DNA of 30,887 nt from Escherichia coli (GTDB lineage: Bacteria; Pseudomonadota; Gammaproteobacteria; Enterobacterales; Enterobacteriaceae). The notes below the pieces were generated by a model. It saw only the letters and a program-made list of their open reading frames with translations. It had not been told where the DNA came from and made no database searches. Below, one piece after another: positions 1,989 to 26,994 of this stretch; position 1 is the first letter of the stretch; each line of letters opens with the position of its first letter. Both the position numbers and the translations under genes were made by a program. The stretch is taken from NCBI RefSeq assembly GCF_003334785.1, contig NZ_QOWV01000027.1; one strand, written 5' to 3'.

Positions 1989-3278
1989 ATGAAAGTATTA
2001 GTGATTGGTAACGGCGGGCGCGAGCACGCGCTGGCCTGGAAAGCGGTCCAGTCGCCGCTGGTTGAGACTGTTTTTGTTGCTCCGGGTAATGCAGGCACTG
2101 CACTGGAACCCGCGCTGCAAAACGTTGCTATTGGCGTGACCGATATCCCGGCGCTGTTGGATTTCGCACAAAACGAAAAGATTGATCTGACCATCGTCGG
2201 CCCGGAAGCGCCGCTGGTGAAAGGCGTGGTCGATACCTTCCGCGCCGCCGGGCTGAAAATCTTCGGCCCAACCGCAGGTGCGGCCCAACTGGAAGGCTCA
2301 AAAGCGTTTACCAAAGATTTCCTGGCCCGCCATAAGATCCCTACGGCGGAATACCAGAACTTCACCGAGGTAGAACCTGCGCTGGCGTATCTGCGTGAGA
2401 AAGGCGCGCCAATCGTCATTAAAGCGGACGGTCTGGCTGCCGGGAAAGGCGTTATCGTGGCGATGACGCTGGAAGAAGCGGAAGCGGCTGTTCACGATAT
2501 GCTGGCGGGCAACGCTTTTGGCGACGCGGGTCATCGCATCGTTATCGAAGAGTTCCTCGATGGCGAAGAAGCGAGCTTTATCGTGATGGTGGACGGCGAG
2601 CATGTGCTGCCGATGGCTACCAGCCAGGATCACAAACGCGTAGGCGATAAAGATACCGGACCAAACACCGGCGGGATGGGCGCTTACTCCCCCGCGCCGG
2701 TAGTAACCGATGACGTTCATCAGCGCACCATGGAACGTATTATCTGGCCAACCGTGAAAGGCATGGCGGCGGAAGGCAACACCTACACCGGTTTTCTCTA
2801 CGCGGGCCTGATGATCGACAAACAGGGCAATCCGAAGGTTATTGAATTTAACTGCCGCTTTGGCGATCCGGAAACCCAGCCGATTATGCTGCGCATGAAG
2901 TCCGATCTGGTTGAGCTCTGCCTGGCGGCCTGTGAAAGCAAACTGGACGAGAAAACGTCCGAGTGGGATGAACGCGCTTCTCTCGGCGTGGTGATGGCTG
3001 CGGGTGGATATCCGGGTGATTACCGCACCGGTGACGTGATCCACGGCCTGCCGCTGGAAGAAGTGGCAGGCGGCAAAGTGTTCCACGCGGGCACAAAACT
3101 GGCGGATGACGAGCAGGTAGTGACCAACGGCGGGCGCGTACTGTGCGTCACCGCGCTGGGTCATACCGTGGCAGAAGCGCAGAAACGCGCCTATGCCTTA
3201 ATGACCGATATCCACTGGGACGACTGCTTCTGCCGGAAAGATATCGGCTGGCGCGCTATCGAACGCGAGCAGAACTAA
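1989..3278 (+). CDS. purD: Phosphoribosylamine-glycine ligase (GAR synthetase)
   Basis: 429 aa, MKVLVIGNGGREHALAWKA N-terminus, ATP-grasp fold; 11 nt downstream of purH stop (operon). Confidence 0.97.
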   Translation: MKVLVIGNGGREHALAWKAVQSPLVETVFVAPGNAGTALEPALQNVAIGVTDIPALLDFAQNEKIDLTIVGPEAPLVKGVVDTFRAAGLKIFGPTAGAAQLEGSKAFTKDFLARHKIPTAEYQNFTEVEPALAYLREKGAPIVIKADGLAAGKGVIVAMTLEEAEAAVHDMLAGNAFGDAGHRIVIEEFLDGEEASFIVMVDGEHVLPMATSQDHKRVGDKDTGPNTGGMGAYSPAPVVTDDVHQRTMERIIWPTVKGMAAEGNTYTGFLYAGLMIDKQGNPKVIEFNCRFGDPETQPIMLRMKSDLVELCLAACESKLDEKTSEWDERASLGVVMAAGGYPGDYRTGDVIHGLPLEEVAGGKVFHAGTKLADDEQVVTNGGRVLCVTALGHTVAEAQKRAYALMTDIHWDDCFCRKDIGWRAIEREQN

Positions 3279-11622: not shown

Positions 11623-11648
11623 GCCCCATTTGCGGGGCTAATTTCTTG
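11623..11648 (+). terminator. Possible weak terminator / hairpin after rsd
   Basis: GCCCC-ATTTGC-GGGGC followed by TAATTTCTT; short stem and interrupted U-tract. Confidence 0.3.
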
Positions 11649-11740
11649 TCGGAGTGCCTTAACTGGCTGAGACCGTTTATTCGGGATCCGCGGAACCTGA
11701 TCAGGCTAATACCTGCGAAGGGAACAAGAGTTAATCTGCT
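11640..11740 (+). ncRNA. TPP (thiamine pyrophosphate) riboswitch, thi-box aptamer in the thiC leader
   Basis: Contains the conserved thi-box elements GGAGUGCC ... CUGAGA ... GGAACCUGAUCAGGCUAAUACCUGCGAAGGGAA; located 80-180 nt upstream of thiC ATG; followed by a second hairpin ATCGCC-CCTGC-GGCGAT (11748..11764) plausibly part of the expression platform. Aptamer boundaries approximate. Confidence 0.9.
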
Positions 11741-16055: not shown

Positions 16056-17185
16056 AAACCTTCAGCGATCGCTGGCGACAACTGGACTGGGACGACATCC
16101 GCCTGCGTATCAACGGCAAAACGGCTGCTGACGTAGAGCGGGCGCTAAATGCCTCGCAACTCACCCGCGACGACATGATGGCGCTGTTATCGCCTGCCGC
16201 CAGTGGCTATCTGGAACAACTGGCCCAACGGGCGCAGCGTCTGACCCGTCAGCGATTTGGCAACACAGTTAGTTTCTACGTCCCGCTTTATCTTTCCAAT
16301 CTTTGCGCTAACGACTGCACGTACTGTGGATTTTCCATGAGTAATCGCATCAAGCGCAAAACGCTGGATGAAGCGGATATTGCCAGGGAAAGTGCCGCTA
16401 TACGGGAGATGGGCTTTGAACATCTGCTGTTAGTCACTGGTGAACATCAGGCGAAAGTGGGGATGGATTACTTTCGTCGTCATCTCCCTGCCCTTCGTGA
16501 ACAGTTCTCTTCACTACAGATGGAAGTGCAACCGCTGGCGGAGACGGAATACGCCGAGTTAAAGCAACTTGGTCTGGATGGCGTGATGGTTTATCAGGAG
16601 ACATATCACGAGGCGACTTATGCCCGCCATCATCTGAAAGGCAAAAAACAGGACTTCTTCTGGCGGCTGGAAACGCCGGATCGGCTGGGGCGTGCGGGGA
16701 TTGATAAGATAGGCCTCGGCGCGCTAATTGGCCTTTCCGACAACTGGCGCGTTGACAGCTATATGGTTGCCGAACATTTGCTATGGCTGCAACAGCATTA
16801 CTGGCAAAGCCGTTACTCTGTCTCCTTTCCGCGCCTGCGCCCGTGTACTGGCGGCATTGAGCCTGCGTCGATTATGGATGAACGCCAGTTAGTGCAAACC
16901 ATCTGCGCCTTCCGACTGCTTGCACCGGAGATTGAACTGTCACTCTCCACGCGGGAATCACCGTGGTTTCGCGATCGCGTTATTCCGCTGGCGATCAATA
17001 ACGTCAGCGCCTTCTCGAAAACGCAGCCAGGTGGCTATGCCGATAATCACCCCGAGTTGGAACAGTTCTCACCGCACGACGATCGCAGACCGGAAGCGGT
17101 TGCTGCCGCGTTAACCGCTCAGGGTTTGCAGCCGGTATGGAAAGACTGGGACAGCTATCTGGGACGCGCCTCGCAAAGACTATGA
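16052..17185 (+). CDS. thiH: 2-iminoacetate synthase (radical SAM tyrosine lyase)
   Basis: 377 aa; [10 protein letters not shown] CxxxCxxC radical-SAM motif; ATGA overlap with thiG stop. Confidence 0.96.
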
Positions 17186-17298
17186 GACGGAATGTAAGAA
17201 CGTAAATTTATTCCGAGCCGCTACGGAAGATGAAAAACGCAAGGTTGTTGAAAGCGTTGTGTTTTTTTATGGTAGTGCCGTCAGCAGGAATGTTGTCC

Positions 17299-17338
17299 AG
17301 GGCGAAAAGCTTCTTCCTCGTTTCGCCCTGCCTTTCTT
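17299..17338 (+). terminator. Candidate intrinsic terminator for the thi operon
   Basis: CAGGGCGAAA-13 nt loop-TTTCGCCCTG (10-bp stem) followed by CCTTTCTT; about 115 nt after thiH stop. U-tract imperfect. Confidence 0.4.
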
Positions 17339-17397
17339 AAAAATTCCGTAATGCAAAGTCTGAAGCCATCGCCTGTTGAGCAATGAAAGAGATCTGA

Positions 17398-17426
17398 TTG
17401 TAAGAGAGTAAATACTCAACTATGAT
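17398..17426 (+). promoter_or_regulatory. Sigma70 promoter candidate (TTGTAA-17-TATGAT) for an intergenic small RNA
   Basis: -35 TTGTAA 17398..17403, 17-nt spacer, -10 TATGAT 17421..17426; no CDS follows on the plus strand before a strong terminator about 165 nt downstream. Confidence 0.5.
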
Positions 17427-17432
17427 AGAGAC

Positions 17433-17600
17433 GAAAATAAGAACACATGTTCTCATCTTCCAGGATGCAGCAGACTGAAGAAATTCAGACATCCCGCAAC
17501 CTGCGATTATCGCAAGGTCAAGGCAAAGTCCGGTAATGGCGTTCTGAATACCAGAGATAATTCTCTGGCGAAACCCACCTTAAGGTGGGTTTTGTTATTT
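17433..17600 (+). ncRNA. sroH: Candidate small RNA (SroH-like) in the thiH/htrC convergent spacer, ending at an intrinsic terminator
   Basis: Promoter as above plus terminator AACCCACC-UUAA-GGUGGGUU followed by UUGUUAUUUU (17572..17600) define an approximately 165-nt non-coding transcript; an sRNA named SroH of about this size has been reported between htrC and thiH in E. coli K-12 (recalled from literature, exact coordinates not verified). Confidence 0.55.
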
Positions 17601-18134
17601 TGAGGGCTGAGGAAGCTGCTTATTTCTCAATAAGTTGTAGGCAATGGTGAAAAATTTCACTGATTTACCTTTCTGTTTTTCAGAAATGGGATAAGCGCTA
17701 GTTACATGCAAACGGAGTTTTTTCTTTTCCCTGAAAGCCCTGAACGCAACAAAGTAAAATGCCTTATCTCCTCCGTCTAAGTCCACCTCAATCACGGCAT
17801 AGCTACCATACCCGGCATGAATAACGTTGCTTTCTGGCAGCGCCAAAATAGTTCTTTTTAAGTGTGTGCGCGCTAAGTTATAACGGTGCTGGCAGAAGGG
17901 ACGGGATTCTTTAGGCGCGTGGTACATTAACGATTGTTTTTCTTCGTTCGTCTGATGTTCATAATCTTTTGTGAAGCAGTGAAGAGAGTAGGTAACCCAA
18001 AAGCGATACTCTAAAGGCTCTTTGCCCTCATGATGCTGAACGTAGACAGCCTGATGAGCATCAAGAAATGATAAATCACGAATATCACCATCCGGATGTC
18101 CAAAAGGTCGCCACTTTTCCACTTCCTGTTTCAT
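17595..18134 (-). CDS. htrC: Heat-shock protein C (YjaZ/HtrC, DUF2441)
   Basis: 179 aa MKQEVEKWRPFGHPDGDIRDLSFLDAHQAVYVQHHEGKEPLEYRFWV; stop codon abuts the plus-strand terminator hairpin. Confidence 0.9.
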   Translation of the reverse strand: MKQEVEKWRPFGHPDGDIRDLSFLDAHQAVYVQHHEGKEPLEYRFWVTYSLHCFTKDYEHQTNEEKQSLMYHAPKESRPFCQHRYNLARTHLKRTILALPESNVIHAGYGSYAVIEVDLDGGDKAFYFVAFRAFREKKKLRLHVTSAYPISEKQKGKSVKFFTIAYNLLRNKQLPQPSK

Positions 18135-18297
18135 TCTCGTTCCTTAAGAAAGTTACACAGGAATAGTATCGAATCCTTGCCGAGTTTGACTCAATTAGTT
18201 CAGTCAGTTTCAGGATATTAGTCATCTCTACATTGATTATGAGTATTCAGAAATTCCTTAAATATTCTGACAAATGCTCTTTCCCTAAACTCCCCCC

Positions 18298-18327
18298 ATA
18301 AAAAAACCCGCCGAAGCGGGTTTTTAC
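18298..18327 (-). terminator. rpoC (rpoBC operon) intrinsic terminator, bidirectional-looking
   Basis: Minus RNA: AAAAACCCGC-UUCG-GCGGGUUUUUUUAU about 25 nt after rpoC stop; A-run/T-run on both sides. Confidence 0.85.
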
Positions 18328-26924: not shown

Positions 26925-26955
26925 AAAAAGGCTGGTGACTAAAAAGTCACCAGCC
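26925..26955 (-). terminator. rplL-rpoB intercistronic transcriptional attenuator
   Basis: Minus RNA: GGCUGGUGACU-UUUUA-GUCACCAGCC followed by UUUUUGC, about 40-70 nt after rplL stop; matches the classical partial terminator that sets the r-protein:RNAP ratio. Confidence 0.8.
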
Positions 26956-26994
26956 ATCAGCCTGATTTCTCAGGCTGCAACCGGAAGGGTTGGC

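Follow-up and report, generated by a model that had tools for sequence, protein, structure and literature searches.

SroH and YjaZ (HtrC) as the two halves of a conserved, horizontally mobile RNA-protein module

Introduction

A small RNA (sRNA), SroH, is encoded in the spacer between thiH and yjaZ (also called htrC) of Escherichia coli, and its position raises the question of whether SroH is a free-standing regulator or belongs with the gene that it abuts. The RNA was reportedly described by Vogel et al. in 2003 and is said to have counted among the orphan sRNAs of K-12 ever since; htrC, for its part, was reportedly described by Raina and Georgopoulos in 1990. Its product, YjaZ/HtrC, is an uncharacterized protein, and an old heat shock phenotype of it is said to be unexplained to this day. 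The DNA analyzed here, called the window throughout, is a stretch of 30,887 nucleotides of an E. coli contig (NZ_QOWV01000027.1, assembly GCF_003334785.1); it is K-12-like and carries thiH, the spacer, yjaZ/htrC, and then rpoC, in that order. An earlier note on the window, made from its letters without database searches, had placed an SroH-like transcript in the spacer and had treated it as an sRNA in its own right. The comparative evidence presented below corrects that framing and firmly supports the conclusion that SroH and YjaZ together make up a conserved RNA-protein module, horizontally mobile and encoded as one two-gene unit, of which SroH is the RNA half. Taking SroH and YjaZ/HtrC together as such a unit gives both of them a testable hypothesis.

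The literature still calls the function of SroH unknown (PMC5389530; PMC6172242), just as the earlier note had stated. Its transcription start site coincides with the 5' end of the RNA (PMC3415461), and SroH is a primary transcript that carries poly(A) tails; its level rises when pcnB is mutated, hence its decay is dependent on poly(A) polymerase I (PMC5389530). A ΔsroH mutant is sensitive to envelope stress, according to a passage of PMC5389530 that cites Hobbs 2010. One in vitro target is on record, the kbl mRNA, which SroH bound in an electrophoretic mobility shift assay (PMC6172242). The RNA was enriched in Hfq photoactivatable ribonucleoside-enhanced cross-linking and immunoprecipitation (PAR-CLIP) data, the authors of which state that it is not an established Hfq target (bioRxiv 10.1101/2020.06.29.178624). 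SroH also rises in stationary phase, and a CRP site at its promoter has been hinted at (bioRxiv 10.64898/2025.12.22.696124); its overexpression had no effect on biofilm or motility (PMC4606813). No other sRNA is so poorly conserved between E. coli and Klebsiella (PMC3415461), and SroH is absent in phylogroups B2 and D as well as in some Shigella strains (PMC3318445). Our literature searches found no published link of sroH to yjaZ or to toxin-antitoxin (TA) systems.

Results

sroH and yjaZ form one presence/absence cassette in E. coli

The strand, coordinates, and length that the earlier note had given for SroH were borne out by a full-length match to the Rfam sroH model RF00372 (model positions 1 to 161 of 161; 201.1 bits, the gathering score being 80; E = 1e-49) on the plus strand of the window (Table 1). 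Separate searches of 5,426 complete E. coli genomes found sroH in 3,740 and the yjaZ segment in 3,738, and the approximately 31% of E. coli genomes without SroH were always without yjaZ too. The whole spacer was covered in 3,730 of these genomes, the remainder retaining only its first 162 to 164 bp. In two cassette-free genomes, those of SYNB1934 (L002) and EC43 (L003), about 25 bp stood in place of positions 17350 to 18294, and the thiH spacer met the rpoC terminator directly. In E. coli, sroH and yjaZ are gained or lost together as one 945-bp block.

Three further observations concern the borders of this block. Terminator hairpins flank the cassette, that of the thi operon at 17298 to 17330 (GGGCGAAA...TTTCGCCC) and that of rpoC at 18302 to 18325, and both are kept in cassette-free genomes. 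A 12-nt exact inverted match joins positions 17261 to 17272 with 18296 to 18307. The insertion sequence IS1 was present in the empty site of another genome (L004) and within yjaZ of strain ET650 (H151).

The pair extends to plasmids, phage contigs, and cyanobacteria

Loci of YjaZ relatives were then collected with the protein as the seed, and RNAs were called at these loci with either the Rfam sroH model or a purpose-built model (R1). At every one of the 18 loci whose YjaZ was at least 47% identical, an SroH-like RNA lay convergent with yjaZ and abutted its stop codon. These loci comprised four plasmids (L005, L006, L007, and L125), among them an E. coli phage-plasmid-like replicon, a Klebsiella IncF plasmid, the 2,462-bp ColRNAI plasmid pB1022 of Proteus, and a Serratia plasmid; a contig of the cyanobacterium Waterburya; the chromosome of Aeromonas hydrophila; seven viral contigs (L113 to L119); and five loci (L128 to L132) from Thiolinea, an Oceanimonas-like organism, another cyanobacterium, Salmonella, and an Erwinia-like organism. 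The 3' end of the RNA fell a few bases from the yjaZ stop codon, on the opposite strand, in every close case examined. Some of the SroH-like RNAs, at 69.8 and 74.3 bits, fell short of the gathering score set by Rfam.

The reverse search, seeded with the RNA motif CCGGTAANNNNGTTCTGAATACCA, returned 95 metagenome loci that collapsed to 58 distinct contexts. A convergent yjaZ was present in 44 of them (36 full length, 6 fragmented, and 2 cut by a contig end) and a co-directional yjaZ in 2, and 12 had none, a group that includes one chance match in a terminase gene and three partial or degenerate RNAs. RNA and gene accordingly stood side by side at all 18 protein-seeded loci and in 46 of the 58 RNA-seeded contexts, on plasmids, on phage contigs, and in a prophage, and across the convergent loci the distance from terminator to yjaZ stop codon was nearly fixed. 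Matches of the core motif in a phage terminase gene (L013, L015, L033, and L068) were set aside as chance, there being no sroH-like covariance model (CM) hit at these sites (at most 13 bits, over part of the model).

A second arrangement was found in a divergent subfamily, at L046/L100, at L053, and on a Vibrio plasmid (L122) whose YjaZ is 36% identical to that of E. coli. Here the RNA, its terminator, and the Shine-Dalgarno sequence and ATG of yjaZ follow one another on one strand. The terminator lies only about 25 to 33 nt from the yjaZ start, which leaves no room for a separate promoter, so yjaZ in these loci would have to be transcribed by read-through of the RNA terminator. Because the linkage is kept in co-directional loci, where there is no antisense relation, it reflects function and not convergent transcription. 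The earlier note had described the contact with htrC as a 3' antisense adjacency; the two do abut in the window, but an antisense relation is not what the linkage depends on.

The genomic context was repeatedly that of mobile elements: 2,462-bp ColRNAI plasmids of the ColE1 type with little other cargo, phage-plasmid-like replicons, IncF plasmids, a P2-like prophage, sites beside Tn3 and relaxase genes, and cyanobacterial islands rich in TA and restriction-modification (RM) genes. By tblastn, YjaZ relatives were present on 559 plasmids, of which fewer than about 50 were close (about 55% identity or more), the others being a 29%-identical paralogue; a tblastn search of phage GenBank with YjaZ gave no match.

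Several loci merit mention for their own sake. The 2,462-bp ColRNAI plasmids occur in Proteus, E. coli, and Klebsiella and carry RNAI, sroH-yjaZ, and one 162-amino-acid (aa) open reading frame (ORF) without an NCBIfam match; a metagenome contig (L067; coverage about 3,984x) resembles a dimer of this plasmid, and in pB1022 (L005) yjaZ is annotated as two coding sequences, suggesting a frameshift. An orphan SroH-like RNA without yjaZ (L012, positions 2316 to 3074; 106 bits with the Rfam model and 119 bits with R1) sits in a P2-like prophage; on one side of it is an ogr-like gene, and on the other are hits to C4 antisense RNA, c4-a1b1, and isrK. No shared alternative protein was found beside the orphan RNAs, the neighbors of which were assorted TA, RM, and methyltransferase genes.

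Among paralogues of 29 to 35% identity, CM matches at the expected convergent position were marginal (22, 18, 17, and 10 bits) or absent (L120, L121, and L135). The two best of these hits had the P1, loop, P3, and terminator layout in common with SroH, and it is suggestive only, from such sequence matches, that the RNA may have diverged along with the protein in the distant paralogues. A paralogue of 29 to 34% identity is carried on roughly 500 Klebsiella, Enterobacter, Citrobacter, and Pseudomonas plasmids. At two loci (L123, positions 1983 to 2692, and L124, positions 1977 to 2697), a structured convergent downstream region has an SroH-like layout (GGAUG...CAUCCCGC, GGCUGAG, and a terminator; 18 to 22 bits), and the L123 paralogue gene adjoins a restriction endonuclease gene.

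SroH has a covarying structure with near-invariant unpaired segments

Homologous RNAs were aligned in two sets, A3 (34 diverse copies) and the CM-based A4 (67 copies, 63 of them distinct), and both supported five helices: P1, P2, P3, P5, and the terminator. Paired cells amounted to 98.4%, against 85.0% in column shuffles, and changes on both sides were seen in 21 of 33 pairs. The covariation score was 0.363 compared to 0.121 in shuffles, none of 500 of which reached 0.363, and slid controls gave at most 0.068. Covariation, a check that the earlier note had proposed for enterobacteria, thus came out in favor of the structure across these homologues. Both P1 and P2 covary; in P1, for example, GGAUG/CAUCC is replaced by CGGUG/CACCG. 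The minimum free energy of SroH was -58.5 kcal/mol, against -36.3 ± 3.7 kcal/mol in shuffles (z = -5.9). The terminator hairpin, which dominates the 3' end of the fold, is the sole helix annotated in the Rfam RF00372 model.

Between the helices lie near-invariant segments, namely CAGCAGA, CCCGYUA, and about 32 nt that include CCGGUAA....GUUCUGAAUA. A CGG/CUG helix is predicted inside the last of these (the core in Table 1); it is invariant, so covariation neither supports nor refutes it. The RNA-seeded set was chosen by the motif CCGGTAANNNNGTTCTGAATACCA, and part of the invariance of the core is built in for that reason; the core is also conserved in protein-seeded homologues (L007, L125, L122, L115 to L118, and L128 to L132). 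Long, near-invariant unpaired stretches of this kind point to recognition by a conserved macromolecule. The conserved core of SroH is a single RNA of about 130 nt, to which enterobacterial copies, the window copy included, add a leader of 27 to 39 nt before P1. No tandem repeats were found at positions 17186 to 18300.

The spacer encodes SroH with its own promoter and terminator

The organization of the spacer agreed in most respects with the earlier note, which had read it as a 409-bp convergent spacer bracketing, between a near-consensus sigma70 promoter and a strong intrinsic terminator, a transcript of about 165 nt. SroH is 161 nt long by the Rfam match and about 165 to 168 nt long with the U-tract, and the RF00372 match is flanked by a promoter and an intrinsic terminator of its own. 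The promoter hexamers are where the note had placed them; "near-consensus" was an overstatement, since 9 of 12 consensus positions are matched. Six nucleotides separate the -10 hexamer from the start of the RNA. The promoter scan gave 3 such sites in 1.2 kb, where shuffles would lead one to expect 1.1, so the match has no significance by itself; it carries weight because its position is equivalent across the family, 37 of 60 distinct members having a sigma70 match of at least 9 of 12 positions at the corresponding site ahead of the RNA. Promoters of homologues often read TTGACA-17/18-TATATT or TATACT, and the -10 hexamer most often lay 8 nt from P1.

The terminator consists of an exact 11-nt palindrome (17571 to 17581 with 17582 to 17592), extendable to C17569-G17594, followed by UUGUUAUUU, and it forms the 3' hairpin of the computed fold. 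A simple terminator scan of the region gave no call and overlooked it. As the earlier note had stated, the terminator abuts the htrC stop codon (17595 to 17597). The claim that the segment holds no credible ORF stands insofar as SroH is noncoding, with no conserved ORF; the note had overlooked a 29-codon ATG ORF inside SroH at 17447 to 17536. Neither this ORF nor the one opened by the AUG of P1 is conserved, and ORFs starting at the conserved AUG range from 1 to 33 codons among 63 homologues.

Table 1. Positions of sroH, yjaZ, and associated elements in the window
Feature	Position	Strand	Description and basis
thiH/yjaZ spacer	17186-17594		409 bp; thiH ORF ends at 17185, stop side of yjaZ at 17595
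Left border microhomology CTTAAAAATTCC	17338-17349	+	Pairs with CTTAAATATTCT at 18257-18268; alignment of empty and occupied sites
sroH-yjaZ cassette	17350-18294		945 bp: sroH promoter, sroH, yjaZ, yjaZ upstream region
sroH promoter, TTGTAA-17-TATGAT	17398-17426	+	Promoter scan; equivalents upstream of homologous RNAs
SroH RNA	17433-17600	+	Rfam match 17433-17593; U-tract to about 17600
Enterobacteria-specific 5' leader hairpin	17433-17460	+	Conserved core begins at P1, 17463
P1	17463-17494	+	GGAUG 17463-17467 pairs with CAUCC 17490-17494; covaries
Internal loop CAGCAGA	17468-17474	+	Near-invariant; enclosed by P1
P2	17475-17488	+	Variable hairpin enclosed by P1; covaries
P3	17499-17518	+	ACC...GGU base conserved; hairpin of variable length above
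Core CAAGGCAAAGUCCGGUAAUGGCGUUCUGAAUA	17519-17550	+	Near-invariant, mostly unpaired; overlaps search motif CCGGTAANNNNGTTCTGAATACCA at 17530-17553
P5 hairpin, CCAGAGA-UAAU-UCUCUGG	17551-17568	+	Compensatory changes in 6 of 6 pairs
Shared terminator hairpin	17569-17594		Last base adjoins yjaZ stop codon; U-rich downstream on sroH strand only
yjaZ (htrC)	17595-18134	-	179 aa; Pfam PF27200 "YjaZ"; NCBIfam NF007263
yjaZ upstream region in cassette	18135-18294	-	Putative promoter and 5' untranslated region (UTR); lies in indel block

YjaZ is predicted to have a BECR/RelE-like core

YjaZ itself matches NCBIfam NF007263, PF27200 being carried by its homologues, and its name at NCBI is "stationary phase growth adaptation protein." It had no match in the Pfam-A scan used, in PADLOC, or in PHROGs, and a PDB sequence-profile search was empty; by sequence profile, YjaZ does not fall within the RelE/ParE families. 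Its relatives are nearly always stand-alone proteins of about 175 to 190 aa, which at 50% identity formed 720 clusters at an E value of 1e-3 or better and 270 at 1e-10. E. coli and cyanobacterial YjaZ are about 47 to 53% identical, and the invariant residues include D20, H52, K56, K138, R141, H143, and S146. The AlphaFold2 model (mean predicted local distance difference test score, 87.8; predicted template modeling score, 0.84) has a mixed alpha/beta fold, and searches of two structure libraries placed its core with RelE, ParE, HigB, YoeB, BrnT, MqsR, CdiA-CT, DUF4258, and PBECR nucleases, a signal that was consistent but weak. On this model, the core of YjaZ is likely to be BECR/RelE-like. 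No conserved ORF that could encode an adjacent protein antitoxin was found, and there was none on the 2,462-bp plasmid; the regions upstream of yjaZ are unrelated between subfamilies.

In a 1,019-aa protein (P0231), 17 separate stretches match the YjaZ profile (query residues 28 to 74), an unusual repeat organization, the family being otherwise single-domain. In the window, a 46-codon ATG ORF (18085 to 18225, minus strand) overlaps the start of yjaZ out of frame.

yjaZ decays while sroH persists

The two halves of the cassette did not decay equally. In the O157:H7 genome examined (L126), a 62-bp deletion in yjaZ, equivalent to positions 17664 to 17725, removes the invariant KKLRLHVTSAYP and shifts the frame, and sroH is intact; HtrC is annotated as a 147-aa protein in O157:H7. 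The yjaZ segment encoding KKLRLHVTSAYP is missing in about 310 of the 3,738 yjaZ-bearing E. coli genomes, where sroH stays intact; the converse is rare, since sroH was partial in at most 4 E. coli genomes. Metagenomes likewise held 6 fragmented yjaZ genes beside an intact RNA and about 8 intact orphan RNAs, some beside only the last 10 to 15 codons of yjaZ. The one genome examined with a disrupted sroH was that of strain MB15 (L127), where IS1 lies at the equivalent of 17511 to 17519 with a 9-bp target duplication and where yjaZ is frameshifted too. Decay of yjaZ with persistence of the RNA is the pattern that an antitoxin/toxin relation predicts, and it draws partly on assemblies and on a single sroH-disrupted genome.

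Discussion

What, then, does the module do? We tentatively favor, with a confidence somewhat short of even, the possibility that SroH and YjaZ are a type III-like TA or abortive-infection pair in which SroH would bind and restrain YjaZ. YjaZ would be the effector, a stand-alone protein of about 180 aa whose predicted RelE/BECR-like core probably makes it a ribonuclease or another growth-inhibiting enzyme. The five helices of SroH would display its long, near-invariant unpaired segments, and YjaZ would bind these segments and be kept inactive. Its own strong promoter would supply SroH in excess, SroH would be turned over, and loss of the cassette or shutoff of host transcription would free YjaZ. 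This type III-like reading is favored because of the toxin-like predicted fold, the mobile-element context including tiny plasmids, and the ToxIN-like layout of the co-directional variants, and also because of the strong RNA promoters, the poly(A)-dependent turnover, and the asymmetry of decay. We infer direct binding, YjaZ toxicity, and the direction of control: toxicity in the absence of the RNA is suggested only by fold similarity and by the decay of yjaZ, and direct binding is suggested by the invariant unpaired segments and by possible RNA/protein codivergence in the paralogues, where the hits were weak.

Several points weigh against a TA pair. As far as the passage of PMC5389530 citing Hobbs 2010 goes, the ΔsroH mutant of K-12 is viable and reported only as sensitive to envelope stress, and this viability counts against the reading because free deletion of a strict antitoxin is not expected where yjaZ is expressed. 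The absence of tandem repeats from SroH is in contrast to ToxI, CptI, and TenpI. The fold scores of YjaZ are weak. Linkage and co-loss are equally expected of any obligate RNA-protein partnership. Finally, errors of assembly may account for the frameshifts seen in metagenome contigs, and MB15 is a single genome.

Known systems bracket the proposal. With ToxIN, CptIN, and TenpIN the module shares a protein effector beside a dedicated, independently folding noncoding RNA on mobile elements and, in a minority of loci (L046, L053, and L122), the order RNA, terminator, gene. It differs from them in that SroH has a single core and not a tandem-repeat array processed by the toxin, in that the window and most SroH-YjaZ loci are convergent and do not have the RNA upstream on the same strand, and in that YjaZ is predicted to be RelE/BECR-like and not ToxN/AbiQ-like. 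The nearest structural neighbors of the modeled YjaZ core are instead the RelE/ParE (BECR-fold) type II toxins. Type I TA pairs such as txpA/RatA have a convergent, 3'-overlapping antisense RNA, and SroH-YjaZ resembles them in having a convergent RNA gene at the 3' end of the protein gene; it is unlike them in that YjaZ, at 179 aa, is not a small hydrophobic membrane peptide, in that the shared hairpin alone is complementary, and in that co-directional variants exist. In AvcID, a nonrepetitive sRNA binds and inhibits the adjacent protein (PMC10511110), and in AbiF-RCd22 the RCd22 RNA, with conserved abiF motifs, neutralizes the toxin by direct binding (bioRxiv 10.1101/2025.04.15.648962), so single structured sRNAs can be type III-like antitoxins. 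RCd22 exemplifies the direct-binding route proposed here for SroH. The proteins (a dCMP deaminase and Abi_2) and RNAs of the two systems are unrelated to YjaZ and SroH, and SroH-YjaZ is set apart by its convergent layout and shared terminator. As for Rfam, RF00372 is the same RNA, on the same strand and with the same neighbors, but it is filed as an enterobacterial sRNA, whereas here it reaches plasmids, phage contigs, Aeromonas, Thiolinea, and cyanobacteria, tied to yjaZ.

The same linkage, covariation, and invariant loops would fit a nontoxic ribonucleoprotein (RNP), in which SroH is a subunit (a scaffold, guide, sensor, or substrate) for YjaZ or YjaZ is a chaperone or processing factor of SroH. 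A yjaZ deletion in the Keio collection is reportedly tolerated in K-12, and the loss of sroH is tolerated as well, to the extent that PMC5389530 describes it; the NCBI name of YjaZ and the rise of SroH in stationary phase (bioRxiv 10.64898/2025.12.22.696124) would also suit such a role. We nevertheless regard a nontoxic RNP as doubtful, given that orphan RNAs persist without the protein, that yjaZ is inactivated in the O157:H7 lineage with sroH intact, that toxins and nucleases are the nearest folds, and that being the main cargo of 2.46-kb cryptic plasmids suits an addiction or defense role better. It is also conceivable, if unlikely, that SroH is the working RNA subunit of an unrecognized mobile RNP and that YjaZ-SroH is an RNA-dependent effector, for example, one that is RNA guided or RNA sensing, in which case the invariant loops would contact a universal cellular or phage target; this remains compatible with the data because the linkage is obligate, the unpaired segments are invariant, and neither partner belongs to a known family.

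Readings that detach SroH from the YjaZ protein fare worse. That SroH is a trans-acting sRNA which regulates chromosomal mRNAs, kbl for one, by base pairing and perhaps with the help of Hfq, and which lies beside yjaZ only incidentally, draws on the kbl gel shift (PMC6172242), the PAR-CLIP enrichment (bioRxiv 10.1101/2020.06.29.178624), and the envelope stress phenotype of the deletion as PMC5389530 relates it. We consider this improbable, because the RNA moves with yjaZ across cyanobacteria, Aeromonas, Vibrio, and enterobacteria, in which no common chromosomal target is expected, because its conserved parts far exceed the length of a seed region, and because the E. coli genomes that lack it always lack yjaZ as well; the reservation of the PAR-CLIP authors about Hfq and the lack of an overexpression phenotype in biofilm and motility tests (PMC4606813) point the same way. 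Very improbable, in our judgment, is a type I-like control of yjaZ in cis, by transcriptional interference or RNase III cleavage at the shared terminator. The convergent, abutting layout with one shared hairpin is indeed kept in most loci, and the hairpin is followed by only UUU on the yjaZ strand, so that yjaZ transcripts may read through into antisense sroH. Against this, co-directional subfamilies retain the same RNA, an antisense mechanism requires neither invariant sequence nor covarying helices, YjaZ is no small hydrophobic peptide, and the 5' regions of yjaZ share nothing able to pair with the invariant loops. Pairing of SroH with the yjaZ 5' UTR was rejected as a conserved mechanism on the ground that the upstream regions are unrelated between subfamilies. 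A stretch upstream of yjaZ, TTCTGAATAC (18243 to 18252, in the same sense as SroH), was dismissed as chance, being limited to E. coli copies and polymorphic (TTCTGGATAC).

Should the type III-like reading of SroH-YjaZ be true, the type III-like class would be extended by a toxin fold and an RNA architecture that are both new to it, and K-12 and two thirds of E. coli would carry an unrecognized TA or defense locus beside rpoBC. The ΔsroH phenotype, the yjaZ deletion of O157:H7, and the tiny cryptic "htrC" plasmids would then be explained. More generally, "sRNAs" on the lists of model organisms may turn out to be parts of mobile modules and not host regulators.

Other RNAs of the window

Two further RNA family matches were found in the window. 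A thiamine pyrophosphate riboswitch (RF00059; 74.8 bits) lies at 11640 to 11740 on the plus strand and is presumably the leader of the thiCEFSGH operon. A match to RF00630, "Pseudomonas sRNA P26" (74.5 bits), lies at 26929 to 26990 on the minus strand, presumably in the rplL-rpoB intergenic region, and is probably the known attenuator or processing hairpin.

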